A DNA stretch of 64,000 bases from a virus (Duplodnaviria > Caudoviricetes), in the IMG/VR virus record IMGVR_UViG_3300029288_000134, positions 1 to 64,000 of that record; one strand, 5' to 3'. Below the pieces are notes generated by a model that saw nothing but the letters and a program-made list of their open reading frames with translations, was not told where the DNA came from and ran no database searches. The position numbers were made by a program, and so were the translations under genes. Shown piece after piece: positions 36,525 to 59,558 of this stretch; within the stretch, counting starts at the first letter, position 1, and each line of letters starts with the position of its first letter.

Positions 36525-38194
36525 TGGATTTAATGCCTAAGTTCTTATCTACATATCTAGAAGAGCGTGTAGACAAGTCAGTTGCGCTTGCTATCAAGCA
36601 AGAAGCAGATATTGTGCAGCTAGCAAATAAGGTCAAGTTCTCGCGGCCTGCTCCTAGTTTTATCGAGAAGACAGAGCTAGGTCTAGATATATCATCGCCA
36701 AGAGCTTCTCTAGGTAAATTAGGCGAGTACAAACCAGATGACATTTCTTCTGAGCAGATTGAGGCTATGCGCAAGAATGGCATGGTTAAATTCGCGATGG
36801 GTATCATTAAATCTCCTGTCATGGGCATTGCTCGCTCTAACCCTGGCGAGGAATGGAGCATGGAGTGTGATAGCGAGAGACTAAAGAAACTTGCGACGCG
36901 CAACTTCAAGTCTATCCGTATGAGTCTTGTGCCACATCAGCTTACCAGCTTGGATTACGGCTTTGCAGTAGGCGAAAAGGTGTGGAAGTACGAGAGTGGC
37001 TCTAAGTTTGGCTCAGATAACAAGAAGTATGTATCGCTAAAGCAGATTAAGCCTAATCACCCAAACACTATTGAGATACTCCGCTTAGAGGAAAATGATA
37101 AGGCCACTGGAAGGTTCAAGGGTGATTTTGATGGGTATCTTCAGAAGTTGCCAACCAGCAGAGATACAGTACACGTAAAATATAACGATGCGTTTATCCA
37201 GACACATGACAAGGGAAATGTATTTGGGAATCTATACGGAAGTAGTGTTTTGGTATCCGTGTTCCCATTTTGGTATTGGTACGAGGTTGTAACGCGGGCG
37301 CTTCTTCGTTATCTTGAGCGCAGGGGAACGCCTGTAGTTGTTGTATACGCTCCGTCCAGTGGAACATTATATAACTCGGAAGACACTGAAATTGCTACGA
37401 TGGATTATGCGCTTCAGATAGCAATGGATATTGCTCGAACAACTGCCGTCGCATTGCCATCTGACGTTGACCCCGAGACAAAACAACCTCTTTGGCGAGT
37501 TGAGTATCTTCTTGATGATCAACGAGCAGATCAATTCATGGAGGTGATAAAGTGGCTCGGAGAGAAGATCCTAGAGTCTATTGGTGTTCCCGTGCGTGTA
37601 GTGTCTGAACAATCTGGTGGAAGTGCTGCTTATACAGCATATCAGACCAACCTAGACGTGTTTTTGCAGACCGTAGAGGATATTCTTGATGAGGTTGTTC
37701 GACATATCAACTCTTACATTTTGCCAGATTTGGCACGTTACAATTTTGGACAGAATACACCAGAGGTCAATCTGCGTACCACTGGTATTGACCGCTCTAA
37801 ATTCAAGCGATTCATCGAGTTAATTGACAGAATGGTTGCAGCAGGAATTGATGTAGGCGTGGATGGCAGGGAAATGGCTAAGAGTTTGGGGATTCCGGTT
37901 TTGCCAGAGGGCGAATCTATGTTGCCGCCCGTACCTACGGCTCCCGCTGCTGCTTCGCCAAGCGCTCCAACTGTTGGTCATGCTCCTGGTACTGGCAAGG
38001 GCGTGAAACAAGGTCCGGTAAGTCAGCGTAAGGGACCGCCAAGGAAGAGTACTACTAAAATGTCTATGGAAATGGATACTGAGGAATTGATTAGATTCAT
38101 AGAAATGCGTGAAAAGGAAGGTAAGCCAATACCGTTTTCGATTGATGATATAGAAAGGGCGGAAAATGCAAGAGTTCAAGATAGTAATTCATGA
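36524..38194 (+). CDS. Portal protein (Mu gp29/DUF935-like)
   Basis: Follows TerL; SLDYGFAVGEKVW, NLYGSSVL, YLERRGTP; Pro/Ala/Ser/Thr-rich C-tail. Confidence 0.85.
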   Translation: MDLMPKFLSTYLEERVDKSVALAIKQEADIVQLANKVKFSRPAPSFIEKTELGLDISSPRASLGKLGEYKPDDISSEQIEAMRKNGMVKFAMGIIKSPVMGIARSNPGEEWSMECDSERLKKLATRNFKSIRMSLVPHQLTSLDYGFAVGEKVWKYESGSKFGSDNKKYVSLKQIKPNHPNTIEILRLEENDKATGRFKGDFDGYLQKLPTSRDTVHVKYNDAFIQTHDKGNVFGNLYGSSVLVSVFPFWYWYEVVTRALLRYLERRGTPVVVVYAPSSGTLYNSEDTEIATMDYALQIAMDIARTTAVALPSDVDPETKQPLWRVEYLLDDQRADQFMEVIKWLGEKILESIGVPVRVVSEQSGGSAAYTAYQTNLDVFLQTVEDILDEVVRHINSYILPDLARYNFGQNTPEVNLRTTGIDRSKFKRFIELIDRMVAAGIDVGVDGREMAKSLGIPVLPEGESMLPPVPTAPAAASPSAPTVGHAPGTGKGVKQGPVSQRKGPPRKSTTKMSMEMDTEELIRFIEMREKEGKPIPFSIDDIERAENARVQDSNS

Positions 38195-38381
38195 TGATGG
38201 CAAGATAGAATTTGCAGTCCCAGAAGACGTGCTTGGATTTATCTCTTATATAATTAGTGCCCTGGCTTTAAGTGATAGCTTCTTGAAACAAGAAGGTTTG
38301 CCAAGCGAGACAAATAACAACGTAATGGAGGTTTTGCAATGTGTGCGCAGCGCTATGCAGTCAAAAGCAAGTCAAACGTAG
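38166..38381 (+). CDS. Hypothetical protein
   Basis: ORF in the operon. Confidence 0.45.
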   Translation: MQEFKIVIHDDGKIEFAVPEDVLGFISYIISALALSDSFLKQEGLPSETNNNVMEVLQCVRSAMQSKASQT

Positions 38382-38574
38382 GTCCGAGAGCTAATACGAA
38401 TGTCGAGGAAGCTATTGCAGTAAATCTACGCAAGCTAGTTTCGCGTCAATATGGTGATATATCGTTGCGTTCTATTGAAGCTACCGAAATTGCCATATTG
38501 AAAGCAACGCGACAGATTATCAGCGACTTGAATACACTTGCTACACAGCAAGTTTCCGAAAAGGAGAATACGAA

Positions 38575-38825
38575 TGGCAAGAGGGGAACGATTCGCAAAA
38601 ACACTGACGAAGCAACTGAGTAAAGAGTGGGTTGTGGAATATCGCACAATGTCTACTCCTGAGATTTATACTGTTGAACACCACCATAAAGACGGAAAAA
38701 TATATCGTGCGATGCCACAGGCGGTACCTGAGATTGGTGGCAGGATACTTACTTCTTATGACTGTCCGTCATGTGGTTGTTACGTATTTGTTGACTGGAT
38801 TCAAAATCAACTGAAAGGAGGATAG
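38575..38825 (+). CDS. Small protein with CxxC
   Basis: SD AAGGAG before MARGERF; CPSCGC. Confidence 0.55.
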
Positions 38826-38942
38826 GGTAATGTGGTTTAATCCTACGCCAGAGCCGCCGCGCCCGACAGAGGGCACCGGCAAAGGCAATGGCGACAGTAG
38901 CAGTCAACCAAAGTAGTTCGACAGATCAAAAGGGAGGGTATT

Positions 38943-39182
38943 ATGGCTAAAGTTAATTCTGGTTCGTGGTTCAATTTGTTTAGTGCAAAAAGTGACCAAG
39001 GTCCATCTCAACAAGTTCTTGACCGCAGTCGTATGAAGGCCAAGAAAGTAGAACGTAACCGAGCGCAACGCAAGGCAACCACATTGCATCACAATTATCT
39101 TCATGCTCACGGAAGAGCATCTAATTCATATCACAAGGGAAGTAGTGGAACCGTACATGCTGGACAATCTCGGTGGAAATAG
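38943..39182 (+). CDS. Small basic His/Arg/Lys-rich protein
   Basis: SD GGGAGGG. Confidence 0.5.
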   Translation: MAKVNSGSWFNLFSAKSDQGPSQQVLDRSRMKAKKVERNRAQRKATTLHHNYLHAHGRASNSYHKGSSGTVHAGQSRWK

Positions 39183-39497
39183 TTGATGTCTGAGTCCGAA
39201 TTCGGCTATATGGAATGGCGCTGCATATTCTGTGGCTCAATAAATCAAGTGCAACCTCTAGAATGTTGCACTCCATGTAGCGGATGCGGATGTGACTGGC
39301 AAGATGGTGGAGTATGGACACATGGTGCAGTATACTCTAGACCAAATACGATGGCGGCCTATACTCCGCGTCTTGCCGGTCCAGTATCTACTACAAGAGC
39401 AGAACAAGAACAAGATCCATACTTTGAAATGGAGGGATTTGAAATGGCTAAATGCGGCAGTAAGAGTAAGGGAAAAAAGAAGGGCAAGAAAAAGTGA
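39183..39497 (+). CDS. Zn-ribbon protein with Lys-rich tail (possible internal start 39444)
   Basis: CIFC...CSGCGC; MAKCGSKSKGKKKGKKK preceded by GGAGGG. Confidence 0.5.
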   Translation: MMSESEFGYMEWRCIFCGSINQVQPLECCTPCSGCGCDWQDGGVWTHGAVYSRPNTMAAYTPRLAGPVSTTRAEQEQDPYFEMEGFEMAKCGSKSKGKKKGKKK

Positions 39498-40180
39498 ATA
39501 TTGTATTAGGGTCAATCTTTCGCAACAGTACATCTTATCTTAATACTTGCTTCGAGCAATTGGCAATGTTAAACGATGAACTTGTTTCTCGTGGTCATTC
39601 ATTTCGGATGGTTTTTGCCGAAGGTGATAGTGTAGATACTACGCGATACGAGCTAGATAAGTTTGCTAAGGGACGCAGCATTACCATTATTGACAGATCT
39701 CACGGTGGTCCATATTGGTGCAGTGCTGATATTCCCGAGAGGTGGGAATCTCTAGCATGGGTGTGCAATGGAGTATTAGAGCAGATTCGAATAGACGACA
39801 ATGCTTTTATCTATGTCGAATCTGATCTTGTCTGGGATACTAATACAATGCTCGCATTGCTGGATGATTTACAAGAGAAACCAGCAGTAAGTCCATTAGT
39901 ATTACATGCAGATGGCTGGTTCTGGGATGGAAATGGTTTTCGCATTGATGGACAGGGTTTCGGTGTTTACCCACCATATCATCCCAAATATGTAGAGAAT
40001 GGGTTTACTCAGATGGGAAGCGTTGGGTCGTGTTGTGTAATGTGGTCAGATATTGGACGATTGTGTAGATTTGCAGGACCGATAAATCACTGGGTTGCCT
40101 TCTGTGATGCAATATATCAAAAAGGGTTCTCGGTGTGGTTGGATTCAACTCAAAAGATTATTCATCCTATAAGGAAGTAA
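39494..40180 (+). CDS. GT-A fold glycosyltransferase
   Basis: FAEGDSVD, YVESD (DxD-like), SVGSC. Confidence 0.75.
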   Translation: MNIVLGSIFRNSTSYLNTCFEQLAMLNDELVSRGHSFRMVFAEGDSVDTTRYELDKFAKGRSITIIDRSHGGPYWCSADIPERWESLAWVCNGVLEQIRIDDNAFIYVESDLVWDTNTMLALLDDLQEKPAVSPLVLHADGWFWDGNGFRIDGQGFGVYPPYHPKYVENGFTQMGSVGSCCVMWSDIGRLCRFAGPINHWVAFCDAIYQKGFSVWLDSTQKIIHPIRK

Positions 40181-40181
40181 T

Positions 40182-40880
40182 ATGAGACACGTAATCACAA
40201 TGACTCACTTTAGGCGACCAGAATACAGCAAGCAAGTTCTAGATGCTTTGCGTAATTGTGTCGGGATTGAGAAATATACGATTGTGGCGCATGTTGAACC
40301 GGGCGGGCCAGCAGAAGTATGGGATACAGTAAAAAGCATTGATTTTGCAGAATGTGTCCCTGTTCTAAATACCAGTGTGCTCGGAATAAATATGAATACC
40401 TTCGAGGCATTGCGGCATGGATTCAGTCTTTCGGATGTTGATTTTGTTATTCATATTGAAGACGATACTCTCCCATCAAAAGACGCACTTGCTTATTTCG
40501 AATGGGGAGCAGAAACATATAAAGCTGATCCCGAGATATTAAATATTTCAGGATTTGTGAGAACTACACAACATCAAGAAAATCCATACCTAGTACATCG
40601 AATACCTTATTTTTCGAGTTGGGGATGGGGTACATGGCGTGATCGTTGGGAAGAGCCGGGTGGAATGCTCGAAACCTGGAATGACTATGCGCGGGATGTT
40701 CATATTCATCAGGCTATACGCCGTGACAGAAAAGAAATCTCGGCATATCAGTCAAGAATCCAAAATATTGGAAGACTGGGAGGTGCAAATATGGGCGCTG
40801 ATATTTGGGAGCAATGGGCAAATGTTCCTGCTTTTATTGCAGATCTTGAACCAGGACTATACGAAGAGATTTTAACATGA
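40182..40880 (+). CDS. GT-A fold glycosyltransferase
   Basis: FRRPEY, HIEDD, SWGWGTWRDRW, SRIQNIG. Confidence 0.8.
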   Translation: MRHVITMTHFRRPEYSKQVLDALRNCVGIEKYTIVAHVEPGGPAEVWDTVKSIDFAECVPVLNTSVLGINMNTFEALRHGFSLSDVDFVIHIEDDTLPSKDALAYFEWGAETYKADPEILNISGFVRTTQHQENPYLVHRIPYFSSWGWGTWRDRWEEPGGMLETWNDYARDVHIHQAIRRDRKEISAYQSRIQNIGRLGGANMGADIWEQWANVPAFIADLEPGLYEEILT

Positions 40881-41539
40881 TTAATGTATTAGTTGCAATT
40901 CCAATAAATCCAAATATGAGTAGCTACCTTGCTGGAATGGCCAAGGGAAATGTTACAAAATTTACTGATTTTAATCCAGGCATGAAGTTTGAATATGCTT
41001 TTAACGAACGATTCTATACTGGTGACAACCTTCATGGTTCAAGTCGCCATGCGCAAGCAAGAAATGGCATCCTTGATATAGTTCTTTGTCCCGAGCATGA
41101 TTATATTCTATGGATAGACGCGGATATTATTCTATATCCTGCCGACCTACCAAGTCTTTTATATGGCACAGACAACAATGCAGTTGTTGCTCCGCTTGTT
41201 TTACGTGAAGGCACAGATGCTTTTTATGACTTCAATGGGTTTATAGAAGCTGGAAATAAACGCATGGCCCGAGTATGCCCACCTTATTTTGAGCAGAAAG
41301 GACCGATAGTCGAGTTAGACTCTGTTGGATGTGTTTATATGATGCCAGCACTTCCATTTCATAATGGCGTTCGTTACAAGACAGTAGATGGGCATACTGA
41401 GCATTGGTCGGTAATGGAAGAATATCGCAAACAAGGCCATCGCGTAATTTGTAATAAAGACATTGTAGTTATTCATGCTGATCTTCAAAAATATGGCGAA
41501 GATTGGCACGATAACAAATCACTGGGAGGGAGTAGATGA
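40877..41539 (+). CDS. GT-A fold glycosyltransferase (Anp1-like)
   Basis: ARNGIL, WIDAD, ELDSVGC, TEH. Confidence 0.8.
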   Translation: MINVLVAIPINPNMSSYLAGMAKGNVTKFTDFNPGMKFEYAFNERFYTGDNLHGSSRHAQARNGILDIVLCPEHDYILWIDADIILYPADLPSLLYGTDNNAVVAPLVLREGTDAFYDFNGFIEAGNKRMARVCPPYFEQKGPIVELDSVGCVYMMPALPFHNGVRYKTVDGHTEHWSVMEEYRKQGHRVICNKDIVVIHADLQKYGEDWHDNKSLGGSR

Positions 41540-42045
41540 AAATAGAAATTGGCTCAGGGGAAAATCCTGATCTTGGCTATGATATTCACACAGATATGCT
41601 AGCGCTGCCTCACGTTGAGTGTATTTGCCCTATGGACAAGATACCATATCCAGATGCTACATTTGATGGACTTAGAGCAAATGATGTACTGGAGCACCAA
41701 TCCTGGGAGTTGATTAAGCCGACTCTACTAGAATGGAATCGCATACTCAAACCAGGGGCAGATGTTTTCATTCAGGTTCCTAATGGCAGACATATTATCC
41801 TGATGTATGCAGGTGGAATGTTTACAATCGAACTTGCTAATTACTATCTCATGGGAGGTCACACTGAGCGACCTGCATATCGTGGCGTTGACAAGAATAA
41901 TGTTCCTCTCTGGATATGGAATGCACATCATACATTTTTTGATGATGCTTGGCTTAAAAAGAACCTAGAGGAAACAGGGTTTACTAATATTCAGATTACC
42001 GCTAATGAAATCGGCAATCTTGAGTGTAGGTGTAATAAGTCATGA
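41536..42045 (+). CDS. Class I SAM-dependent methyltransferase
   Basis: KIEIGSG, DVLEH, EWNRILKPG. Confidence 0.8.
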   Translation: MKIEIGSGENPDLGYDIHTDMLALPHVECICPMDKIPYPDATFDGLRANDVLEHQSWELIKPTLLEWNRILKPGADVFIQVPNGRHIILMYAGGMFTIELANYYLMGGHTERPAYRGVDKNNVPLWIWNAHHTFFDDAWLKKNLEETGFTNIQITANEIGNLECRCNKS

Positions 42046-42815
42046 TAGATCAGGCATATCCCAATGGAAGCCTTACTGTTGAACCTGCAATTTGGGAATC
42101 AGACGTTCTTGAAGTTAGGGCTGTAAAGATCAAGGATTTTATAGCACCTTCATACAAGGACGCGCTAGAATTACTGAAACCCATTATTTCGAGGGGTTCG
42201 TTTGATTTTATAAGTATTGATTGTTCTAATTTGTCATCGTACTATCTTGTAGCGCTTGAAGATGCCGGATTCCACATTGGATCTCATTACACAGATTATC
42301 TTATCGAGATAAATGACAATGCTCTAAAGTTGATGGAGTCATATAGAGGTAGGTATAATATACGCCAAATGCGGCCATCTGATTCCAGCAGCGTTTCCAA
42401 GATAGCATCTGATGCATTCGATACTGGCAGATTTATGGCTGATCCACATTTCCCAGATGGATGGGGAGAGAAATTGTATGGTGCATGGGGCGAAAACTCC
42501 TGCAAGGGCTATGCCAGCGCCGGGGTTGTATGCTTGTCGCAGGACAAGATAATTGGTTTTATGACAGCAAGGGAACATGATTCTGCTCGGGCAGATATGG
42601 ACCTAATCGCGGTATCCAAAGAGTTTGTTGGAATGGGAGTCGGGGCATCTTTATTGGCAGAGATGATATACAGGCTAGATGAAAGGTTTATTGATAGTGC
42701 AATTGCCAGGACAGAGAGATGTAATCAAGAAATCAACGGCATGTATGAGTTTTTCAGATTCCCAATTATCAATACTGGAATAGTTATGCATTGGGTTAAG
42801 AAAGGATTAAGCTAG
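42042..42815 (+). CDS. GNAT acyltransferase (WecD/RffC-like)
   Basis: GRFMADPHF, LIAV...GMGVG, TERCN...YE. Confidence 0.8.
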   Translation: MIDQAYPNGSLTVEPAIWESDVLEVRAVKIKDFIAPSYKDALELLKPIISRGSFDFISIDCSNLSSYYLVALEDAGFHIGSHYTDYLIEINDNALKLMESYRGRYNIRQMRPSDSSSVSKIASDAFDTGRFMADPHFPDGWGEKLYGAWGENSCKGYASAGVVCLSQDKIIGFMTAREHDSARADMDLIAVSKEFVGMGVGASLLAEMIYRLDERFIDSAIARTERCNQEINGMYEFFRFPIINTGIVMHWVKKGLS

Positions 42816-42816
42816 A

Positions 42817-43089
42817 ATGAACAAACAAGAAGCACTAGGTATTATTTACAAAGTAATTGACAGTAGCGAGTGGCCGCTAGAAAAGAAAGAGGACTCTGTT
42901 ATATTCGGAAAGAACGCAACACTAGATTCACTTGGCGTTGTATCGTTCATTATTGACGTAGAGATAGAGTTAAGAGCAGCAGGGTCGCCGCTGATATTGG
43001 CAAACGATAAGGCTATGTCGCGTTACACGAGTCCATTCAGAAATGTTGGCGTACTTGCTGATTATATCGTGGAGTTGACCAATGATTGA
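42817..43089 (+). CDS. Acyl carrier protein
   Basis: LDSLG phosphopantetheine Ser motif; 90 aa. Confidence 0.85.
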   Translation: MNKQEALGIIYKVIDSSEWPLEKKEDSVIFGKNATLDSLGVVSFIIDVEIELRAAGSPLILANDKAMSRYTSPFRNVGVLADYIVELTND

Positions 43090-43783
43090 TACCCCTGTTA
43101 TGCTTATTACGGGTGCAACTAGCGGAATAGGAAAGTTTCTTGCTGAAGGTTATTCTTTCACAGAGAGATACAAGGTAATTGGTTGTGGCAGAAGAGATCC
43201 TATTGATCTTGGAAGTGTTCGCTACTATCAGCTAGATGTTTCTGATGAGCAAGCTGTGGTGGATATGCTTAGTGACGCATATTCGTTGTACGGCAGACTA
43301 GATATTGTAATTAACAACGCTGGCGTTGCTTCCATGAACCACTTTCTAACTACGCCGATCAGTAGTTTCGACAAGGTGTTTGAGACTAACGTCAAGGGAA
43401 CGTTTCTGGTGAGCCGAGAGGCTGCGAAGCTGATGAAATCACATGGCGGCAGGATAGTCAACTTCACATCAATAGCAGTCCCTTTTTCCCTAACAGGAGA
43501 GTCTGTTTATACAGCATCCAAGACAGCGATTGAGTCTCTCACAAAAGTAATGGCCCGAGAGCTTGCACCGTTAGGAATTACCGTAAATGCCGTTGGTCCA
43601 TGCCCTATAGCAACCGACTTACTAAAGAATGTACCGGAAGACAAGATTGATACCATTCTGAGCAGCCTTGCAATTCATGAGTATGGCATGGAAGCAGATG
43701 TACTTAACGTTATAGATTTCTTTATCAATCCAAAAAGCAATATGATTACTGGTCAAGTCATCTATTTAGGTGGTGCATTTTGA
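43082..43783 (+). CDS. SDR oxidoreductase (FabG-like)
   Basis: TGATSGIG, NNAG, YTASK, ITGQVI. Confidence 0.9.
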   Translation: MIDTPVMLITGATSGIGKFLAEGYSFTERYKVIGCGRRDPIDLGSVRYYQLDVSDEQAVVDMLSDAYSLYGRLDIVINNAGVASMNHFLTTPISSFDKVFETNVKGTFLVSREAAKLMKSHGGRIVNFTSIAVPFSLTGESVYTASKTAIESLTKVMARELAPLGITVNAVGPCPIATDLLKNVPEDKIDTILSSLAIHEYGMEADVLNVIDFFINPKSNMITGQVIYLGGAF

Positions 43784-45039
43784 GTATAGAATGGTTTCTT
43801 GATCGTATGCGCACTTTTGGCAACCGTGATGCGATTATTCTACAGGACCGAGATTGTGTTGCTACTTATAATGACCTGCTCGACGAAATAGATAGACAAA
43901 AACCTGCCCCGTTATCAAGTTTTGCTATGGATGACCCCGTATCTGACATTGCACTCATGCTGTCTGCAATAAACAAGGGCTATGTAGTTGTTCCGTTGCC
44001 TAAGTTTGACACGAGGCGCGATAGAAAAATAGAACTTGTTGCAGGCTCTCTTGATTTTATTGATGAGGTAGTGCTGCCAGGAAAACCTGCGCTTGTAGTG
44101 TTCACAAGTGGGTCAACGGGCGATGAAAAGGCGATTCTGTTTGCAGCAGAACAAATGATGGAACGTTATAGACAACTGTATCCACCGAGGACTAGGTTGT
44201 CATTTTTGCAATTGGATCATCTCGGCGGGATTCATACTGTATTATACACCTTGTCTAACGGCGGAACCATTGTTGTTCCAAGGGATAGAAATCCACAAAC
44301 TATTTGCGAGGCAATAGAGAAGTATAAAATAGAGGCGCTTCCTGTAACACCGACATTTCTAAATATACTTCTTGCGTCTGAGGCATATAAGGAATACGAT
44401 CTTTCTTCTTTAAGAGTTGTTACATATGGAACTGAGGTTATGCCCGAGTCTGTACTGAAAAGAATAAGCAGGGAATTGCCATACGTTAAGTTTAAGCAAA
44501 CTTATGGATTATCAGAGCTAGGTGTAATGCACGTAAAGTCCAGGGACTCAGTTTCTACTTGGATCAAGATTACAGATGATAAATACGAAGCAAAAATACA
44601 GGATGGGACATTATGGGTGCGTACAGAATTTGCTATGAAGGCGTATCTTAATGCACCTAATCCATTTGATCACGAGGGTTGGTTTAATACACACGATAAA
44701 GTTGAGTTTGATGGCGAGTGGATGAGGATACTTGGCAGAGACACGGACATCATTAACGTTGGTGGATTAAAAGTGTACCCAGTCGAGGTCGAGAACGTGT
44801 TATTAGATATGCCTGGAGTTATTGATGCATTGGTTGATGGTATATCAAATCCATTCACTGGAAACGCCGTTGCCGTAACATTGCAAATAGAAGAGCGATT
44901 TGACGCAACTATTATCAAGAAAAGAGTCAGGGATTTTTGCAAAGGGAAACTAGAGTCATACAAAATCCCGGTATTAGTAGATGTTACAACTGTGCCACTT
45001 ACTGGACCTAGATGTAAAAAGATAAGGACTGTTGTGTAG
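43780..45039 (+). CDS. ANL-family acyl-adenylate ligase
   Basis: FTSGSTG, YGLSE, GWFNTHD, GRDTDIINVGGLKVYPVEVE. Confidence 0.9.
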   Translation: MSIEWFLDRMRTFGNRDAIILQDRDCVATYNDLLDEIDRQKPAPLSSFAMDDPVSDIALMLSAINKGYVVVPLPKFDTRRDRKIELVAGSLDFIDEVVLPGKPALVVFTSGSTGDEKAILFAAEQMMERYRQLYPPRTRLSFLQLDHLGGIHTVLYTLSNGGTIVVPRDRNPQTICEAIEKYKIEALPVTPTFLNILLASEAYKEYDLSSLRVVTYGTEVMPESVLKRISRELPYVKFKQTYGLSELGVMHVKSRDSVSTWIKITDDKYEAKIQDGTLWVRTEFAMKAYLNAPNPFDHEGWFNTHDKVEFDGEWMRILGRDTDIINVGGLKVYPVEVENVLLDMPGVIDALVDGISNPFTGNAVAVTLQIEERFDATIIKKRVRDFCKGKLESYKIPVLVDVTTVPLTGPRCKKIRTVV

Positions 45040-45746
45040 TGCAAACACTAGGAGCAGTAATAGTAAGCGAACATGCAGATTTACTAGAATCTGTATTGCT
45101 ATGGATGAGAGATACCGAGTTATTTGATCAGATAGTAGCAGTTGCAGATGTTAAGGGAGGGCCTGATACTGAACGTGTTGCGCATGAACTTGCTGATATA
45201 TCTACCGTGATGAACGTTCCTCATCAGGGCGCGGTATTGGATGCTGCTTTTCTACTCTGTAACACAGACTGGGTTTTTCGCATGGATGATGACGAAAGAA
45301 TGGGAACGCTTTTTGTGGAAGGTGTGCGCAATCTTATAGAGCGAGATATGCATGACGTATATCATTTTCCGCGCTATTGGCTTTGGCCAGACACAACACA
45401 TTATATTAGTAATGGATGTTGGGTATATAACGAGGATAGACAAACTAGACTTTGGAAGAGAGGTTGTGTAGGATCGCAAGGTTCAATTGACCCAGGGGCC
45501 GTTCACGTTGACCTGGTTCCGAAGCCAAATTCAAGAACTGCTGTAAATGCACTAGACTGGCATATCTTTCATTATGTCCTGCTTACTCCTTATGAAGAAA
45601 GATTGAAAAAGGTGGCTCGATATGCACAAATAGAAAATGTCCCGCTAGGGGATTATAGAAAAAGAATAGGCCAGTTCTACTTACCTGAAGATTCTAATAA
45701 CGTTGAGGTTGGCCATTGTACCGAATGGCCTTGGGGTATATTATGA
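45039..45746 (+). CDS. GT2 glycosyltransferase
   Basis: GTG start overlapping TAG; DWVFRMDDDE; IFHY. Confidence 0.8.
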   Translation: MQTLGAVIVSEHADLLESVLLWMRDTELFDQIVAVADVKGGPDTERVAHELADISTVMNVPHQGAVLDAAFLLCNTDWVFRMDDDERMGTLFVEGVRNLIERDMHDVYHFPRYWLWPDTTHYISNGCWVYNEDRQTRLWKRGCVGSQGSIDPGAVHVDLVPKPNSRTAVNALDWHIFHYVLLTPYEERLKKVARYAQIENVPLGDYRKRIGQFYLPEDSNNVEVGHCTEWPWGIL

Positions 45747-46258
45747 TAGATACAAGCAATGCACTAAAAATAGATGGGTGGATGTTTGACGATGAACTAG
45801 AGTGGTTAGCGCAACAAGCACAAAAGCATCAGAATATTCTAGAAATAGGTTCGTGGAAGGGTCGTTCTACTCGCGCATTAGGAGACAATACCCCTGGAAG
45901 AGTTTGGGCGGTTGATTATTGGCTAGAACATGATTGCGAAATGAGACAGTTCCTTGAGAATTTGTCGGATCTGATTATTGCCGAAAGGGTAATAGTGATG
46001 CGCACAACCAGTAATAACGTAACTACTATGTTGCACAATACGCACCGCTCCTTCTTTGATATGATATTTTTAGATGGCGACCACTGTTACGAATCTGTAA
46101 AATCCGACATCTCAAATTGTATTCCGTTATTATCCCCTGGAGGCATATTGTGTGGACATGATTATTCTGTTGCATGGGAGGGGGTGATGCGGGCAGTTGA
46201 AGAGATTCTGCCGAACTTCTATTTACACAATACTATCTGGTACAAGGAGATCAAATGA
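45743..46258 (+). CDS. Class I SAM methyltransferase (Methyltransf_24-like)
   Basis: ILEIGSWKGRST, DMIFLDGDH, GGILCGHDY. Confidence 0.85.
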   Translation: MIDTSNALKIDGWMFDDELEWLAQQAQKHQNILEIGSWKGRSTRALGDNTPGRVWAVDYWLEHDCEMRQFLENLSDLIIAERVIVMRTTSNNVTTMLHNTHRSFFDMIFLDGDHCYESVKSDISNCIPLLSPGGILCGHDYSVAWEGVMRAVEEILPNFYLHNTIWYKEIK

Positions 46259-47238
46259 GGGTATTAGTTACTGGAAATCTTGGTTATCTAGGTAGCGTTG
46301 CAACGAGTATGCTGCACGAGAACAATCACGATGTTCTAGGAATTGATATGGATATATGTGCTATTTATCCCGAACACGAATATGATATTCGCGTTATTGA
46401 TTGGGACAAATATCTGCCATATGTCGATGCTGTTGTTCATCTAGCGGGTGTATCTAATGATCCCGCTTGTGAACTTGATGACTCGCTTACTTACGATATA
46501 AATAATGCGGCAACGATTGTGTTGATAGAGGCGGTAAATAGATGCCCCAATATCAAGAAGTTCGTGTTTGCTAGTTCTGCAAGCGTGTACGGCTCTAGTG
46601 AGGAAGTATCAACAGAGTCATCAAGGCTATCCCCAATTTCTGCTTATGCACTTAGCAAGCGTATGGGGGAACAACGGATACTTGGCTATCTAGACGGGCG
46701 CATTCGACCAACCATACTAAGACTCGGGACATTATTTGGGAAGTCTATCTATAGGCAAAGGTTCGATCTAGCAATTAACTTAATGGTCAAGGATGCCGTT
46801 CTTAACAATGAGATTAAGGTATATGGTGGCGATCAATGGAGGCCGTTTCTTCACGTTAATGATGCCGCGAGTGCAATTTTATTTGCATTAACAGATAACA
46901 GGATAGTAGATTCAAGTATATATAATGTGGCAATATCCAATATCAAAATAAGCGATCTTGCCGTACTTATTAAAAACAGACTAGATTCTATGGGCTATCA
47001 CGGCATTAATATAAATACATTTTCGCTTGATGATCAGCGTAATTATCGCCTTGATTGTTCACTAATAAAGAGTATTGGATTTGATCCTTTGCACACTATT
47101 GATATGGGGATATGGGAAATGTCTTTACTAATAAAAGATATGGTTACAGGTGGGTACAATCTGGAAGATTCACGATACTACACAATAAAACTATGGAAAA
47201 AGTGGGTGGAGAAATATGGAACGAATCCCGTTCTCTAA
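46255..47238 (+). CDS. NAD-dependent sugar epimerase/dehydratase
   Basis: VTGNLGYLGS, FASSASVYG, YALSK, WRPFLHV. Confidence 0.9.
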   Translation: MRVLVTGNLGYLGSVATSMLHENNHDVLGIDMDICAIYPEHEYDIRVIDWDKYLPYVDAVVHLAGVSNDPACELDDSLTYDINNAATIVLIEAVNRCPNIKKFVFASSASVYGSSEEVSTESSRLSPISAYALSKRMGEQRILGYLDGRIRPTILRLGTLFGKSIYRQRFDLAINLMVKDAVLNNEIKVYGGDQWRPFLHVNDAASAILFALTDNRIVDSSIYNVAISNIKISDLAVLIKNRLDSMGYHGININTFSLDDQRNYRLDCSLIKSIGFDPLHTIDMGIWEMSLLIKDMVTGGYNLEDSRYYTIKLWKKWVEKYGTNPVL

Positions 47239-48328
47239 ACCATCTATAAATCAAGATGACATAGACGCCGTATCTGATGTCATGCGCTCGGGATGGCTGA
47301 CAATAGGTAACGAAGTAGCTTCTTTCGAGCAAGAGCTTGCAGAACGACTTGGTGTCGAGTATGTGATATGCGTAGACTCATGTACGTCTGCCCTGACCCT
47401 AGCTATAGAATCATACATGCCATTTTCTGGTAAGATATGTATTCCAGCATTGTCATTTATAGCAACAGCAAACACTGTAGTAAAAGCTGGCGGCGAGAAT
47501 AACTTAGTGTTTTGTGATGTTGGTTGTGATGGCAATATTAACCCTAACAAAATACCAAAAGATGCGGAGATTGTTATTCCGGTTCACTATGCTGGCCAAC
47601 CATGTAATATGGATGATATTGTTTTTGGAAGAACAGTGATAGAGGATGCCGCACATGCATTCGGCGCAACGTACAACAACGCCATAGTTGGCGCTGCTAG
47701 TTACCGTGATTATCAAACTACATGCTGTTTTTCATTTTACCCCACCAAGCCAATGACTACAGGGGAAGGCGGGTGTATTACTACTAATTATGAACGAATA
47801 GCTAATTATGCAAGAAGCATGTCGTTGCACGGACTAAGTGCTGGTCATGCGAATAGGTACGAGAGATCAAGCAGAAATCATCCAGTCGTTGAGCAACGTC
47901 CTGGTTACAAAATGAATATGACTAACATCGCAGCGGCCCTTGGGAGACAACAGCTTAAACGACTCGATTACATGCTTGCGGCGCGTAGAAAAATAGTTGC
48001 ACGTTACCAGGACGAATTATGGAGCACGGTAGAGTGTCTGCCATTTGCTGACTTCACAGGTCACGCATGGCATATCTTTGTAATCCTAGTAGATAACCGA
48101 GATGATGTTGCACAGAAACTTGACAGTCTCGGGATTGGAACTGGTGTGCATTATAATCCACCGTTACATCTTCATCCTTGGTATCAGAAAAAATATGGGC
48201 ACGTTACAGGAGATTTTCCTGTTGCGGAAAGGATTGCAAAACGATGTCTTAGCTTGCCACTATTCCCAGATATGACAGATCAACAAGTAGAACGAGTAAT
48301 TAAAGCAGTAAAATCAATTGTTGGCTAA
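47216..48328 (+). CDS. DegT/DnrJ/EryC1/StrS sugar aminotransferase
   Basis: SCTSAL, EDAAHAFGA, SFYPTKPMTTGEGG (PLP Lys), LSLPLFP. Confidence 0.93.
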   Translation: MERIPFSKPSINQDDIDAVSDVMRSGWLTIGNEVASFEQELAERLGVEYVICVDSCTSALTLAIESYMPFSGKICIPALSFIATANTVVKAGGENNLVFCDVGCDGNINPNKIPKDAEIVIPVHYAGQPCNMDDIVFGRTVIEDAAHAFGATYNNAIVGAASYRDYQTTCCFSFYPTKPMTTGEGGCITTNYERIANYARSMSLHGLSAGHANRYERSSRNHPVVEQRPGYKMNMTNIAAALGRQQLKRLDYMLAARRKIVARYQDELWSTVECLPFADFTGHAWHIFVILVDNRDDVAQKLDSLGIGTGVHYNPPLHLHPWYQKKYGHVTGDFPVAERIAKRCLSLPLFPDMTDQQVERVIKAVKSIVG

Positions 48329-48389
48329 GTATAATTGTTCTGACAACGATTATACTTTCAATGCAAAAAGTATAATTTAGGGAGGACAC

Positions 48390-49259
48390 ATGAAGGTATA
48401 TGCCGAGATAGAAGAAGTATTAGGCATTGGATTACATCGTGTACAGTATGAAATCAAGCATCACGCACCGCCTGGAATTGAGTTTGTTGACAACATAGAA
48501 GAAGCAGACTTGCAGATTGTTCCCGTAATAGGGCTTGGTAGCCTTGAGTTCATCAAGCATCCAAGTCATGTACTGTTACAGTATTGTTACATGACCGCCG
48601 AGAGACAGGATCCCGAGTTCTGGTTGCCCATCTTCCAAGAAGCGAAAATGGTATTCAGCTATTACGATCTTCCGAGCTATGTAGGATCTAGCGATTTCAA
48701 CTTCTTGCACTCTCCGCTCGGAGTTGATATGGAAGTGTTTCAAGATCGCAAGTTGTCAATAGTTCCAAGGGACTTTATTGTTGCAACTTCTGGATACGAG
48801 CCATTTGGCGAGGCTATTAAGGAATGCTATCAAGCTGCGCGTATCTTAAAGAAAAAGATATTTCACCTTGGTCCAGGTCTAGATCATGATAGATTCCAGC
48901 CGTGGGTAGGCGCTGGCTTTGTTGCGCACAGCGGTATTAGTGACACTGATCTTGCTCGGATGTATAGTAGATCTAAGTATGTTTCTGGCCTACGATTCGG
49001 AGAGGGTTTTGAGTTGCCTGTAATTGAGGGATTTGCTTGTGGTGCTCGACCTATTTGTTTTGACTTGCCCGTATATCGTCAGTGGTTTAATGACTTCGCT
49101 GTATTCGTTCCTCATATAAGAGACGATGATCTGATGTATGCATTGGTAGAGATATTTAATACAGATAGACCAGTAACGGCGGAAGAGTTGCAAATATGCA
49201 AAGAGCGTTTTAGTTGGGATGTGGTAATACAAAAATTCTGGGAGAGGGCGCTAGAATAA
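48390..49259 (+). CDS. GT-B (GT4-like) glycosyltransferase
   Basis: EGFELPVIEGFACGARPI. Confidence 0.8.
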   Translation: MKVYAEIEEVLGIGLHRVQYEIKHHAPPGIEFVDNIEEADLQIVPVIGLGSLEFIKHPSHVLLQYCYMTAERQDPEFWLPIFQEAKMVFSYYDLPSYVGSSDFNFLHSPLGVDMEVFQDRKLSIVPRDFIVATSGYEPFGEAIKECYQAARILKKKIFHLGPGLDHDRFQPWVGAGFVAHSGISDTDLARMYSRSKYVSGLRFGEGFELPVIEGFACGARPICFDLPVYRQWFNDFAVFVPHIRDDDLMYALVEIFNTDRPVTAEELQICKERFSWDVVIQKFWERALE

Positions 49260-50578
49260 TGTCTAAGAAAATCAAAGTATTGTGTTGGTCTGACAGTCCC
49301 GCTGTCACAACAGGGTTTGGTGTTGTGGCAAAAGAATTATATAAAGGTTTTCATGACGCGGGAATGGAAGTTGTTGCAATGGGTACCCTTGCTACGCCGC
49401 TAGTTGACAACAGTAATTTGCCATATCGCGTGATCAATGCCTGTCAACATGATCCAGAGATGTATGAACTTGCTCCTGCGATTGTTAGCATGGAGAAGCC
49501 TGACGTTGTATTTATTCTTGCAGATCCAGGTACGGCATATAACCGAATAGGAAAGTTGTTTTCCGATACACCTGTTGTGGCATACTTTCCCATTGAGGGA
49601 TCGCCCGTATCTACACGTTATCTAGATTTCATTCGAGATGTAATACATCGTGGTGGATCAGCGGTAACATATACGAAATGGGGAGCGGATACAATATCGC
49701 TGTTCTCAGGTGGAATACTCAAGATTCCGTACATCTACCACGGAGTAGATCATGCTGGCTGGAAACCCATAGAGCCTGAATTACGTAAACATATGCGTAA
49801 AGTTGTGGGATGGGACGACAAGTTTGTGGTTACTTTTCGTGGTCGTAACAAGGGCGTAAAAATGCAGTTGTCTCTGATGCACGCAATGCACCAGCTAGTT
49901 CACGTTAAGAAACGAGATGACATCTTGCTATATCTGCATTGTAAGCCGTTCGAAGAATATCTAATGCAGGGCTGGAATTTACTAGAGTGGAAAAAGAATC
50001 TTGGTCTATCAGAGAATCTCTTATTTCCACAGGATATGTATAATCAGCTTGATGGTGTTCCGTTCGACAGTAACAAGATTACCGATTGGAATAATGTTAA
50101 AGTAAGTGATGATCCCAAGGTGCGCGGATTGAATTTCATTGATATGGATTTATGTGAGAGAACAGCACTTGCTGATCTATTTATTGACCCTGCTTCAATA
50201 GAGGGATTTGGATTGCCCGCGCTTGAAGCTGCTGCGTGTGGTGTACCAGTAGCTACAGTAAATGACTCGGGAGTGAGAAGCGAGATATTTGGCGATAATG
50301 CATACTTCATGGAACCCATTACTGAAACTCGCTGGCACACGGGTGCTGCTTTGAAGATTGTGGCTGAGGATACTATCGGTAGCACGATTGAGCTTTTCTC
50401 TAAAAACGAGAAGTTGTGCAAGGAGTATGGTGAGCTTGGCCTAGAAAGAAGCAAGGATTTCAGATGGGATAACGCACGAGAATCCATGACTAAGTTAGTA
50501 GAGCAAGCGTCAGGGAAGAATACCGGACAGGCAATGTGGTTTAATAACCTATTGGGAGGGATGAGTGGGAATCAATAG
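49259..50578 (+). CDS. GT4 glycosyltransferase
   Basis: TGFGVV, YHGVD, EGFGLPALEAAACGVPV; TAATG start. Confidence 0.88.
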   Translation: MSKKIKVLCWSDSPAVTTGFGVVAKELYKGFHDAGMEVVAMGTLATPLVDNSNLPYRVINACQHDPEMYELAPAIVSMEKPDVVFILADPGTAYNRIGKLFSDTPVVAYFPIEGSPVSTRYLDFIRDVIHRGGSAVTYTKWGADTISLFSGGILKIPYIYHGVDHAGWKPIEPELRKHMRKVVGWDDKFVVTFRGRNKGVKMQLSLMHAMHQLVHVKKRDDILLYLHCKPFEEYLMQGWNLLEWKKNLGLSENLLFPQDMYNQLDGVPFDSNKITDWNNVKVSDDPKVRGLNFIDMDLCERTALADLFIDPASIEGFGLPALEAAACGVPVATVNDSGVRSEIFGDNAYFMEPITETRWHTGAALKIVAEDTIGSTIELFSKNEKLCKEYGELGLERSKDFRWDNARESMTKLVEQASGKNTGQAMWFNNLLGGMSGNQ

Positions 50579-50629: not shown

Positions 50630-50863
50630 GTGCTCGTGCATGGTTGCACCAATCACAAGGGGTATGTAGTGGATAATTTCGAGTTCGCTGTACAAGTGGA
50701 AAGTATAATGAAGCTGCTTTTATCTAATGACGTGCAGCGACAACTTGGCACCATGCGTAAAGGTAGAATAGAAATCGTTATTAAGGACGGGATAGCTCAG
50801 TCTATATCCGTAACATCTATGCATCTTTTAGAGAATCTACGCGATTCACTTGACAATTCTTAA
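50630..50863 (+). CDS. Small hypothetical protein
   Basis: RKGRIEIVIKDG pattern; start uncertain. Confidence 0.4.
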   Translation: MLVHGCTNHKGYVVDNFEFAVQVESIMKLLLSNDVQRQLGTMRKGRIEIVIKDGIAQSISVTSMHLLENLRDSLDNS

Positions 50864-50952
50864 ATATAGTATATAGTTGCATTAACAAGTTAATAATGTC
50901 GATCTGACGTATGTCAACGGTCTGGTTCTTTCTCTTGTCTGCCGTGGTGATG

Positions 50953-51001
50953 CGCGGGGTCGTTTACTCTTAATAGAGTAATCGGCCCCGCGTTTTTTTT
51001 T
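50953..51001 (+). terminator. Terminator-like hairpin with T9 in the head-operon leader
   Basis: CGCGGGGTCGTTTACTCT-TAAT-AGAGTAATCGGCCCCGCG-T9. Confidence 0.75.
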
Positions 51002-51018
51002 GTTTCCTGGAGGTATGT

Positions 51019-52488
51019 ATGCCAGAAGTAACTGAGAACTATGTGCATATACCAGTTCGTGGAGATGATCAATTTGTAGAAGGTTCAATTAGAACAATAG
51101 TCATCTCGGCCAGTCAGGGAATAAGGGCCCTGATCGGAAAGTTGAAATCGGATCCACAAGGTTCCACTAAGATCAAAACATACTTGTTCTCAACTGCGAA
51201 GTGGAACATGGAAAAAGCTAAAGCCTGGGTATCCAAGCACAAGCTAGAGGACGTGAATATGGATCAAAACATAGAAGATATTGTAGTTATGGAAGATGTT
51301 TCATACGATGAACTTCAAAATGAAATAATCGCAGCCTGGGAAGAGGGTCAATATACAAGTAATCCTGTTCCCCAAATGAGAGGCGCATATGTAAGTAAAG
51401 TATATAAGGATTATATTATAACTCACCTTGAAGGCAAGCTATACAAGGTTGCCTATAGTAAAAAGGGAGACAAGATAGAATTCAGCGAACCAGAAGAAGT
51501 GGAGATGAAAGTGGAGTATGTTAAGGCGGATATGCCCTTTGATTATGTTGCCTTGATCGAGCTAGAGGAAGATGGTTCCCCTGTTCAGTGGATACAAATG
51601 CACGAAGAGGGGGAATGGGAGCATCCAGAATATGGAACGCTTTCCATGACCAAGAGCAAGATCAATGCAATGATCAAGAACTTCAACGAAAAACTACTTG
51701 GATATGAACCTTCAGGGAACTTGCATCATGACAAGAGTCCTGCTCAGGGATGGGTGAAGGAGCTTGCTTATAAGAACAAGAAACTGATGGGAAAAGTCGA
51801 GTGGACAAAGGAGGGGATTGCAAATATCCGCGATAAACTATACCGATACATTTCCCCAGAATACAAGGAAGATCACGAGGGGAAAGGGGCCTTGTTTGTA
51901 GGATTCGCACTCACCAACAAGCCATTCCTTCCAGGCCAAAAGCCACTGGTATGTTCAATGGATGTACAAACTCAGTTGTTTGAATCAAGATTAGCTACTA
52001 AGAAGGAGTTACAAATGCCCGAGAAAAATACTGTCGTAGAAGATCCGAAGATTACTACGCCGGATCCAGTTGTGCCTGTTGTACCAGTTGTTACTCTTAG
52101 CGCCGAAGACATTGCGGTTTTAAAGATGGAAGCTGCAAAGGTCAAGGTTCTCGAAGAGCAACTTGTCAAGATGGAGTCTGATGCAAAGAAAGCAGAGATC
52201 GCTGCAATGTGCGATAAGGCTGCTAGTCGTGGCGTTGATCCGTTCACGATTAACAGCGTCAGCGCAATGCTTGTGGCTCTGCAACGTAACGGTGAAGATG
52301 TGGTCATGCTCGAAGAGGGCGCTGCTCCCGTTAATATGTATCGTGCTCTATCTCAATTTTTGCAGAACGTTACTGGGCCAATCAAAACCGAAGAGCAGAC
52401 TCAGATCGACAACGAGAAGCCGAATCTGAATCTTAGCGACGAGGCTGATTACACCCAAGAAGACGTTGATTCGTTCATGAAGGTTTAA
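51019..52488 (+). CDS. Prohead protease/scaffold (Mu gpI-like)
   Basis: GEWEHPEYG, AQGW, VEWT, YRYISPEY, ALTNKPF; coiled-coil C-terminal third. Confidence 0.85.
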   Translation: MPEVTENYVHIPVRGDDQFVEGSIRTIVISASQGIRALIGKLKSDPQGSTKIKTYLFSTAKWNMEKAKAWVSKHKLEDVNMDQNIEDIVVMEDVSYDELQNEIIAAWEEGQYTSNPVPQMRGAYVSKVYKDYIITHLEGKLYKVAYSKKGDKIEFSEPEEVEMKVEYVKADMPFDYVALIELEEDGSPVQWIQMHEEGEWEHPEYGTLSMTKSKINAMIKNFNEKLLGYEPSGNLHHDKSPAQGWVKELAYKNKKLMGKVEWTKEGIANIRDKLYRYISPEYKEDHEGKGALFVGFALTNKPFLPGQKPLVCSMDVQTQLFESRLATKKELQMPEKNTVVEDPKITTPDPVVPVVPVVTLSAEDIAVLKMEAAKVKVLEEQLVKMESDAKKAEIAAMCDKAASRGVDPFTINSVSAMLVALQRNGEDVVMLEEGAAPVNMYRALSQFLQNVTGPIKTEEQTQIDNEKPNLNLSDEADYTQEDVDSFMKV

Positions 52489-52891: not shown

Positions 52892-52901
52892 GGAGTAGAA
52901 A

Positions 52902-54035: not shown

Positions 54036-54038
54036 ATA

Positions 54039-54075
54039 AGCTGCTGGTCGGTATCCAGCGAGAGGACCAGCAGCT
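54039..54075 (+). terminator. Hairpin after capsid gene
   Basis: AGCTGCTGGTC...GACCAGCAGCT. Confidence 0.65.
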
Positions 54076-54088
54076 AGGATTTTTCATT

Positions 54089-54697: not shown

Positions 54698-54709
54698 TGG
54701 AGACAACTT

Positions 54710-55900: not shown

Positions 55901-55912
55901 TAGGAGAAAGAT

Positions 55913-57343: not shown

Positions 57344-57345
57344 GT

Positions 57346-59543: not shown

Positions 59544-59558
59544 TAAGGAGGAATTAAA

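Follow-up and report, generated by a model that had tools for sequence, protein, structure and literature searches.

The tailed-phage record IMGVR_UViG_3300029288_000134 (Caudoviricetes) carries a cassette of 14 genes among its head genes, with which the phage would, on balance, produce an amino sugar bearing N-acyl and methyl groups and link a chain of several sugars to its own virion. The window analysed here comprises bases 1-64000 of this 86,176-bp IMG/VR record, which is linear and estimated to be 72% complete. This reading builds on the observed gene content and operon structure of the cassette, on its nativeness to the phage genome, on its modular make-up and the reappearance of its parts in other phages, and on the lack of any membrane step; from these we infer the chemical steps, the acyl group and the acceptor.

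Gene content and origin of the cassette

The cassette consists of 14 co-directional open reading frames (ORFs) on the plus strand (positions 39494-50578), here numbered g01 to g14, between a Mu-type portal gene and a Mu-type protease/scaffold gene (Table 1). Together these encode four GT-A and two GT-B glycosyltransferases (GTs), two methyltransferases, an extended short-chain dehydrogenase/reductase (SDR), a DegT-family aminotransferase, a WecD-like GNAT, a carrier protein, a FabG-like reductase and an ANL ligase. A first-pass annotation, made from the DNA alone, had listed the same 14 plus-strand ORFs and families between portal and prohead protease, and both the list and its coordinates stood when hidden Markov model assignment was run with Pfam, NCBIfam and PHROGs, alongside Atlas (Portal_Mu before the block, Mu-like_Pro after it). 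The translational coupling it described was likewise recovered, as most junctions measure -4, -8, -1 or +1 nucleotides (nt), that is, overlaps of 1-8 nt or a gap of 1 nt, and the sole gap within the block is one of 61 nt before g13. No strong terminator-like site was found within the block, nor from TerL through the tail genes, all of which lie on the same strand. None of the 14 proteins has a transmembrane segment (no segment with mean hydropathy >1.6). The annotation had also reported that no sugar nucleotidyltransferase is encoded in the window, and none was found across the whole 86-kb record.

The cassette is native to the phage. The block has a GC content of 0.42, and its GC and codon usage differ from those of the structural genes no more than those of the structural genes differ from the replication arm. 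Three other studies (of landfill, groundwater and an unspecified metagenome) yielded contigs that cover parts of both the cassette and the head region at similar depth. These contigs are short and have holes, but they bridge both edges of the block, with one small contig over 39323-39586 and others over 50664-51561, which answers the concern raised in the first-pass annotation that the block might not be linked to the phage. Given the compositional match and the independent contigs carrying both stretches, misassembly with host O-antigen DNA is very unlikely.

Predicted sugar and acyl chemistry

The first-pass annotation had assigned g11 as a dehydratase within a route to 4-acylamido-4,6-dideoxyhexoses of the Fuc4NAc or viosamine type, an assignment that did not hold. 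In a HMMER alignment with the dTDP-glucose 4,6-dehydratase of Bacillus anthracis (PDB 6bi4), YxxxK is present in g11 and SSASVYG stands against the catalytic STDEVYG, placing S108-A109-S110 at the position of the T-D-E of RmlB; S107-S108-A109-S110 are invariant in 14 family members. The score of g11 against TIGR01181 (68.1 bits) is also far under the equivalog cut-off of 365.1, and an RmlB/RffG-type 4,6-dehydratase was rejected on these two grounds. As g11 is without T-D-E and its family has an invariant S-S-A-S, 4,6-dideoxy logic is unsupported; canonical dehydratase chemistry is absent, and the sequence does not show whether C6 is deoxygenated or lost. When the g11 family profile was compared with the PDB, the best match was 6vo6 (E 1.7e-40), followed by 4-epimerases (~1e-29 to 1e-31) and dehydratases (~1e-21 to 1e-23), so that 6vo6 outscores the epimerases by ten orders of magnitude and the dehydratases by about 17. 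The similarity of g11 itself to 6vo6 is distant (phmmer E 4.1e-20 over ~300 residues). The 6vo6 structure is presumably that of Cj1427. Cj1427 is a C4-dehydrogenase that releases a 4-keto nucleoside diphosphate (NDP)-sugar (PMC10680097).

The aminotransferase g12 matches PF01041 with 311.9 bits over residues 10-365 (gathering score 19.8) and is nearest to PseC and ArnB, the C4 aminotransferases of UDP-4-keto sugars, scoring 290.7 bits against NCBIfam PseC (cut-off 423.5) and 252.3 bits against ArnB (cut-off 631), in both cases below the orthologue threshold; ArnB was also matched in the PDB (E 3e-54). For g05, the NCBIfam dTDP-Fuc4N acyltransferase (WecD) was matched weakly (E 1.6e-11; 44.5 bits versus a cut-off of 219), the alignment covering residues 12-216 of the 257 in g05 and positions 6-196 of the 232 in the profile, and PDB 2fs5 was matched with E 0.0034. 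It is therefore more likely, on these family relationships, that g11 and g12 form a C4-oxidase/aminotransferase pair than that they follow the dehydratase route.

This pairing recurs in cells. A scan of 185,579 species genomes for relatives of g11 gave 80 cellular loci (L084-L163), and in 44 of these a DegT gene lies beside the g11-type SDR, directly downstream in most. A GNAT of ~270-300 residues stands upstream of the SDR-DegT pair in 14 loci, with g05 homologues so placed in L094 and L150, one locus (L121) has an SDR::GT2 fusion, and the partial protein P0046 carries SDR and DegT domains together. The pair occurs in Omnitrophota, bacteria of the candidate phyla radiation, DPANN archaea, Chloroflexota, actinomycetes and Myxococcota (for example L089:364-3458, L121:9974-11860 and L117:8080-9903), and its recurrent neighbours are GT2, ArnT-like PMT_2, GT4 and a nucleotidyltransferase. 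The order of keto, amino and N-acyl steps anticipated by the first-pass annotation is thus borne out by the adjacency of SDR and DegT, often with a GNAT upstream. These neighbourhoods suggest that the SDR-DegT pair is a conserved two-step unit, in cells wired to a lipid-linked, Arn-like route, apparently an uncharacterised Arn-like pathway for modification of the envelope or of proteins. Among viruses, 447 relatives of the SDR were found in IMG/VR, whereas few GenBank phages have a DegT gene (11 of 50,697 records at E <1e-20).

The genes g05 to g08 would form an acyl line. Although g06 has no Pfam match, Ser38 of its DSL motif is invariant in six homologues, and all 15 PDB matches of the six-member profile are carrier proteins, a weak but consistent signal with DltC best (E 0.0041); a homologue in L002 gives a PP-binding match (E 0.001). 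The ligase g08 is above cut-off for both AMP-binding (103.2 bits) and AMP-binding_C (31.3 bits) and shares with its homologue in a second phage contig, G001, the motifs TSGSxGxxK, YG..E and GRxxD and a C-terminal Lys. The reductase g07 scores 147.7 bits for the NCBIfam 3-oxoacyl-acyl carrier protein (ACP) reductase, under the equivalog cut-off, and its FabG homology suggests a step from a 3-oxo to a 3-hydroxy group. DltA, an ANL ligase, loads the carrier DltC directly, and by analogy g08 would load an acid straight onto g06. We assume that this acid is acetoacetate-like and that a host enzyme activates the carrier.

The order g05-g06-g07-g08 is kept in G001, and GNAT-carrier-FabG-ANL also occurs in L172 and L175, while in L173 and L174 carrier-FabG-ANL lies behind an unannotated ORF of ~188 residues; in L172-L174, only the carrier, FabG and ANL find matches among the cassette proteins of the window. 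As the module recurs with different pathways, including the NeuB-like/CMP-transferase pathway of L175, it looks like a portable N-acyl device for amino sugars. The viral contig L175 (4786-10726) carries genes for a NeuB-like protein, a CMP-cytidylyltransferase, GNAT, carrier, FabG and ANL, followed by one for a DUF4910/DUF2172 plus aminoglycoside-N-acetyltransferase-like protein, and its gene content makes it a candidate for phage synthesis of an N-acylated nonulosonic acid.

The four GT-A proteins (g01, g02, g03 and g09) each have a DxD-like motif. No Pfam match was obtained for g01, which matches g03 by BLASTP (E 2.5e-4), has viral GT2/GT25/Anp1/CAP59 clusters as its Atlas feature neighbours (score 0.97-0.99) and has a 35% identical homologue adjoining a fused g13::GT4 gene in L165. 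The weakest of the four assignments is g09, for which a 31% match lies beside the fused GT in L168. For g13, the Atlas model shows a complete compact GT-B fold over residues 1-289 (TM-score 0.79-0.88 to GT4 enzymes), and its family in Atlas is almost entirely viral; in the PDB search, g14 gave only weak GT4 matches and the g13 profile none. The two genes are separate neighbours in the window and in L167 and are fused as one ORF in L165 (2323-4551, 742 residues) and L168 (7328-9502, 724 residues), which links them functionally. From this pattern, g13 and g14 look like a virus-specific two-part transferase. For g14, the ATG at 49259, preceded by AGAGGG, is a more likely start than the TTG at 49214.

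In the pathway that we envisage, the cassette would act entirely in the cytoplasm and be transcribed with the head genes. First, g11 would oxidise C4 of a host-made NDP-sugar, probably a UDP-sugar, and g12 would transaminate the 4-keto product to a 4-amino sugar. In parallel, g08 would adenylate a short carboxylic acid and load it onto the carrier g06, g07 would reduce its 3-oxo group, and g05 would pass the (3-hydroxy)acyl product on to the amine of the sugar. The methyltransferases g04 and g10 would methylate the sugar or the glycan, and the six soluble GTs (g01, g02, g03, g09 and g13/g14) would assemble an oligosaccharide on an acceptor that is itself soluble; the most likely candidates are capsid and/or tail proteins, modified as the particle is put together.

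Candidate acceptor of the glycan and its genomic setting

Parts of the cassette travel between unrelated phages as modules. A megablast search of the cassette against GenBank phages gave no match, and three pattern-based probes of limited sensitivity found the full cassette in only one other IMG/VR contig. The 46-kb contig G001 has ten of the 14 cassette genes at 23-48% identity and shares no other gene with this phage; nine of them lie directly upstream of, and abut, its TerL-portal-capsid block, while the remaining one, a GT4, is situated within the structural genes. Its g10 homologue is 46% identical and holds the same placement relative to g11. The GT pair is found among structural genes in two further contigs, in the order portal-protease-capsid-...-GT2-[g13::GT4 fused]-...-tape measure in L168 and TerL-portal-capsid-...-g13-like-GT4-GT4 in L167, and the GC content of the recurrence contigs ranges from 33 to 66%. 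Among cultured phages, Pontimonas phage phiPsal1 has the order capsid-GT4-methyltransferase-GT2-neck, and in Tetrasphaera phage TJE1 a set of genes for a nucleotidyltransferase, kinase, epimerase, methyltransferase and GT precedes TerL by a few genes (~2.6 kb). The first-pass annotation had called a full precursor pathway in a phage head operon unusual, which is fair, but the gene set of TJE1 means that it is not unique. The Pfam Terminase_6N and HK97-capsid models gave no match in G002-G005, loci that PHROGs did annotate. Two other comparators were rejected, the Aphanizomenon 'phage' Yong-DA because it looks plasmid-like and Pseudomonas phage Y5 because it has only DegT in common. As a separate observation, the TerL of G001 is a protein of 858 residues with a LAGLIDADG insert (L082:793-3369).

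Virion proteins are a plausible acceptor, given the position of the genes in six phage genomes of differing lineage and the published actinophage precedent. A lipid-linked route finds no counterpart here, as no Bac_transf or PMT_2 match was obtained in the 86 kb, and a virion acceptor is favoured because lipid-linked machinery is absent, the cassette lies inside the head operon and the pattern recurs in unrelated phages.

Several points weigh against glycosylation of the virion. The acceptor C-termini of actinophages are reportedly Ser/Thr-rich, and no Ser/Thr-rich C-terminal tract was found in 20 proteins of the structural region (at most 10 Ser and Thr per 25-residue window), so that the Ser/Thr/Pro-rich portal tail proposed as a candidate site in the first-pass annotation is not evident. 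Every enzyme match falls below the NCBIfam equivalog cut-off and substrates are therefore undefined, while the contig is incomplete. No ketosynthase is encoded in the 86 kb (no ACP_syn_III_C match), which leaves the origin of the 3-oxoacyl group unexplained unless acetoacetate or a related acid is what the ANL ligase loads. A phosphopantetheinyl transferase is likewise missing, so that a host enzyme would be needed. In tblastn searches of the 50,697 GenBank phage records, g13 and g03 gave no match and g14 only weak matches to unvalidated GTs; the cassette thus has no homology link to validated virion GTs. Soluble GT2 and GT4 enzymes can, moreover, modify host glycans carried on a lipid or a polymer on the inner side of the membrane.

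This last point underlies an unlikely alternative, in which the cassette modifies an envelope glycopolymer of the host (wall teichoic acid, lipopolysaccharide core, S-layer or other) from the cytoplasmic side, for example to block superinfection or re-adsorption of progeny to debris. This is the mode of action of the soluble TarM/TarS/TarP- and Waa-type GT2/GT4 enzymes, the cellular SDR-DegT-GNAT trio is wired to GT2 and ArnT-like PMT_2 envelope enzymes, and the virion proteins show no visible acceptor motif. However, no initiating phosphoglycosyltransferase, GT-C, flippase or membrane protein was found in the cassette or the 86 kb, no integrase was found among the ORFs scanned, and the genes in the six phage genomes lie within late head/tail operons and not in early or lysogeny-conversion positions.

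It is more doubtful still that the cassette hypermodifies the bases of phage DNA with an oligosaccharide as a defence against restriction. Diverse phage GTs glycosylate 5-hydroxymethylpyrimidines (Pyle 2024, cited in PMC12619734), and thymidine in the DNA of Yersinia phage YerA41 bears a substitution of ~1 kDa (PMC9023294). The genome encodes dCTP-deaminase-like and thymidylate-kinase proteins, and 28% of it is missing. Within the 86 kb present, however, no PF00303 protein (thymidylate-synthase-family hydroxymethylase) was found, where the control matched ten of 14 genomes; the cassette lies in the morphogenesis block rather than with the replication and nucleotide genes of the other strand, and the same GT pair stands between capsid and tail genes in other phages.

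There is a slightly slimmer chance that the acceptor is some other soluble molecule, such as a non-virion phage or host protein, a small molecule or a lipid, and that the product is a free glycoconjugate. An ANL ligase, carrier, ketoreductase, GNAT, methyltransferases and GTs would equally make up a toolkit for glycosylated natural products, the SDR family is present in many actinomycetes, and L172-L174 hold the acyl module without matches to the remaining cassette proteins, but the record encodes no scaffold-forming enzyme (polyketide synthase, non-ribosomal peptide synthetase or terpene synthase) and the cassette recurs with structural genes. Finally, the contig is metagenomic with no isolate behind it, but misassembly with host O-antigen DNA is hardly credible in view of the matching composition and bridging contigs described above, the single strand and overlapping stop/start junctions throughout the block, the unrelated phage contig in which the same cassette abuts the terminase, and the lack of Wzx, Wzy or phosphoglycosyltransferase-type genes.

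The surrounding genome is organised in two arms. The left arm (1-34.7 kb, minus strand) holds genes for nucleotide and DNA metabolism, including a dCTP-deaminase-like protein with an intein, an RNA ligase, two Rad52-like proteins, a SNF2 helicase, an intein-bearing ribonucleotide reductase (barrel and TSCPD domains), an amidase and a thymidylate kinase. From 34.9 to ~77.7 kb almost all sizeable ORFs are on the plus strand, in the order TerL, Mu-type portal, a few small ORFs, the 14-gene block, Mu gpI-like protease/scaffold, lambda-E-type major capsid protein, and head-tail and tail genes, with ORFs of 1343, 1400 and 1104 residues in the tail region. A search of 5.8 billion proteins gave only seven relatives of the portal, each on a short contig, and the capsid protein had no relatives in the IMG/VR search. 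The nearest cultured relatives of TerL (27-28% identity) are from Rhizobium phages and Methanothermobacter phage psiM100, and those of the capsid protein (25%) from Gordonia phages. PHROGs gave no match for nine of ten head-tail ORFs scanned (52502-60194), and the tail sheath and tube were not recognised there. Near-identical sequence is present in landfill, groundwater and wastewater metagenomes from several studies.

Some further features of the flanks were recorded. Inteins occur in the dCTP-deaminase-like gene (2-1582, minus strand) and the ribonucleotide reductase gene (27191-31579, minus strand), the latter with a LAGLIDADG domain, two separate Rad52/22-family genes lie in the replication arm (7347-8096 and 2469-3038, both minus strand), and the block of tail genes has an HNH endonuclease gene at its centre (60313-61047, plus strand). 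In a contig from an independent metagenome (run X3), 35 other letters replace 272 bases at 50998-51271, a stretch that covers the intergenic region and the first ~250 nt of the protease/scaffold ORF; the true start of this ORF may lie downstream, or its N-terminus may be strain-variable. The same protein has a PVVPVVPVV repeat near residue 350, the sole stretch in the region with a transmembrane-like hydropathy score.

Table 1 Features of the cassette and its flanking head genes, in order of position (SAM, S-adenosylmethionine; PLP, pyridoxal phosphate).
Feature	Position	Strand	Basis
TerL, terminase large subunit; start of co-directional late block	34929-36524	+	Pfam Terminase_6N/6C
Mu-type portal	36524-38194	+	Pfam Portal_Mu E 1.4e-18
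Several small ORFs, portal-to-cassette interval	38166-39497	+	Final ORF adjoins g01; its C-terminus is Lys-rich
g01, GT-A-type glycosyltransferase, ESD motif	39494-40180	+	Atlas feature neighbours and weak match to g03
g02, GNT-I-like GT-A, EDD motif	40182-40880	+	Pfam GNT-I 26.5 bits (cut-off 25.4)
g03, Anp1-like GT-A, DAD motif	40877-41539	+	Pfam Anp1 E 2.2e-10
g04, SAM-dependent methyltransferase	41536-42045	+	Pfam Methyltransf_11/23; 37% identical homologue in G001
g05, WecD-like GNAT, putative N-acyltransferase for NDP-4-amino sugar	42042-42815	+	Pfam Acetyltransf_1
g06, acyl/aminoacyl carrier protein, 90 residues, Ser38 in DSL motif	42817-43089	+	Family profile
g07, FabG-like 3-oxoacyl-carrier-protein reductase	43082-43783	+	Pfam adh_short E 1.4e-43
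g08, ANL adenylating ligase, short N-terminal part, putative loader of acid onto g06	43780-45039	+	Pfam AMP-binding and AMP-binding_C
g09, probable GT-A (GT2-like), DDD motif	45039-45746	+	Pfam Glycos_transf_2 E 3.6e-4, below cut-off
g10, class I SAM methyltransferase (Methyltransf_24)	45716-46258	+	Pfam E 1.7e-17
g11, extended SDR, putative NDP-sugar C4-oxidase feeding g12	46255-47238	+	SSASVYG and YxxxK motifs
g12, DegT-family PLP aminotransferase	47216-48328	+	Pfam E 8e-93
g13, compact GT-B, virus-dominated family, E-x7-E motif	48390-49259	+	phrog_2170 E 3e-6; Atlas model
g14, GT4 (GT-B)	49214-50578	+	Pfam Glycos_transf_1 E 8e-11; phrog_2170 E 3.7e-18 full length
Mu gpI-like prohead protease/scaffold	51019-52488	+	Pfam Mu-like_Pro E 1.7e-17
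Major capsid protein, candidate acceptor	52902-54035	+	Pfam Phage_cap_E E 6.9e-11; ~25% identity to Gordonia phage capsid proteins

Known systems and significance

The closest biochemical analogue of the cassette, judged by gene content, appears to be the flagellin viosamine island of Pseudomonas syringae. This island (vioA, vioB, vioR, acp, vioS, vioM and vioT) provides N-(3-hydroxybutanoyl)-2-O-methyl-viosamine O-linked to flagellin (PMC3927599), a self-assembling protein that is glycosylated in the cytoplasm by soluble enzymes. By gene list, both systems combine a DegT aminotransferase, an N-acyltransferase, a 3-oxoacyl-ACP reductase, an ACP, a methyltransferase and a GT. In contrast, the phage has an ANL ligase in place of the ketosynthase VioS (beta-ketoacyl-ACP synthase III), its nucleotide is probably UDP rather than dTDP, its acceptor would be a virion protein, and its keto-sugar would come from the non-dehydratase SDR of the cassette rather than from host RmlB, for which reason the sugar is probably not viosamine. 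Similarly, flagellin glycosylation islands of enterobacteria carry ACP, FabG, CoA-ligase, aminotransferase and methyltransferase genes (PMC4875605).

The order of keto, 4-amino and N-acyl steps is also that of the Fuc4NAc branch of enterobacterial common antigen (RffG/WecE/WecD) and of the Arn (Ara4N) pathway, with g05 resembling WecD and g12 resembling ArnB and PseC, and the cellular g11-g12-GNAT trio adjoins ArnC-like GT2 and ArnT-like PMT_2 genes. However, g11 is without the T-D-E of RffG and RmlB, and the phage has no polyprenyl-phosphate or GT-C steps. Presumably g11 also departs from the T-S-E motif of ArnA and UXS. The Campylobacter jejuni GDP-heptose C4-dehydrogenase Cj1427, which works without dehydration and reoxidises its bound NADH with 2-oxoglutarate as co-substrate, is, like g11, an extended SDR, but the active site of 6vo6 (presumed to be Cj1427) has TNS where g11 has SAS, and the partner of g11 is an aminotransferase whereas epimerases and reductases follow Cj1427. 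Undecaprenyl phosphate-dependent O-antigen and capsule loci, which have an initiating phosphoglycosyltransferase, a flippase/polymerase or ABC exporter and membrane proteins, differ further, as the 14 proteins have no membrane segment and the 86 kb no Bac_transf or PMT_2 match.

Among viruses, giant viruses and chloroviruses make amino sugars and encode sugar-nucleotide tailoring enzymes and GTs that decorate their own capsid, but these are eukaryotic viruses with an unrelated genome organisation, and we know of no carrier-protein acyl line in their capsid glycosylation. The nearest phage precedent is that of the Cluster O and F mycobacteriophages, in which GTs and a methyltransferase reportedly place glycans on capsid and tail-tube subunits (Freeman et al. 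2023, via PMC11600133 and PMC12619734), at their C-termini (PMC12619734). Both systems have phage-encoded soluble GTs and a methyltransferase beside virion genes, as does phiPsal1 with its GT and methyltransferase genes between capsid and neck. In contrast, the present phage, from landfill and wastewater samples and with 42% GC, has 14 genes rather than three to four and adds amino-sugar synthesis and a carrier-based N-acyl line; its g13 and g03 have no detectable similarity to GTs of cultured phages and its structural proteins have no Ser/Thr-rich C-terminal tails. Virion glycosylation by phage GTs and the presence of amino-sugar genes in many viral contigs were known already, and what is new is a far larger, modular and self-sufficient set in a head operon.

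A more specific reading of the chemistry can be offered as a tentative possibility. The phage coat glycan might contain an undescribed 4-(3-hydroxyacyl)amino-4-deoxy sugar with its C6 oxygen retained (or, should g11 act as a decarboxylase, a pentose), made by an uncharacterised but widely distributed C4-oxidase/aminotransferase pair, with a GNAT receiving its acyl group from a phage carrier. The GNAT-carrier-FabG-ANL set would then be a portable module that is combined with varied sugar pathways, including that for nonulosonic acids in L175, and that diversifies virion surfaces.

Phage sugar coats alter antibody recognition and probably also adhesion to hosts and surfaces. The documented cases so far are a few actinophages, with three or four genes each. 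The cassette suggests that phages outside this group can carry a complete, self-contained glycan workshop, in which synthesis of the amino sugar and an acyl-carrier line of its own are combined with methylation and six transferases. Three of its enzyme sets are worth characterising, namely the C4-oxidase/aminotransferase pair, the carrier-dependent sugar N-acyltransferase and the virus-specific two-part GT-B, and all three could serve glycoengineering.

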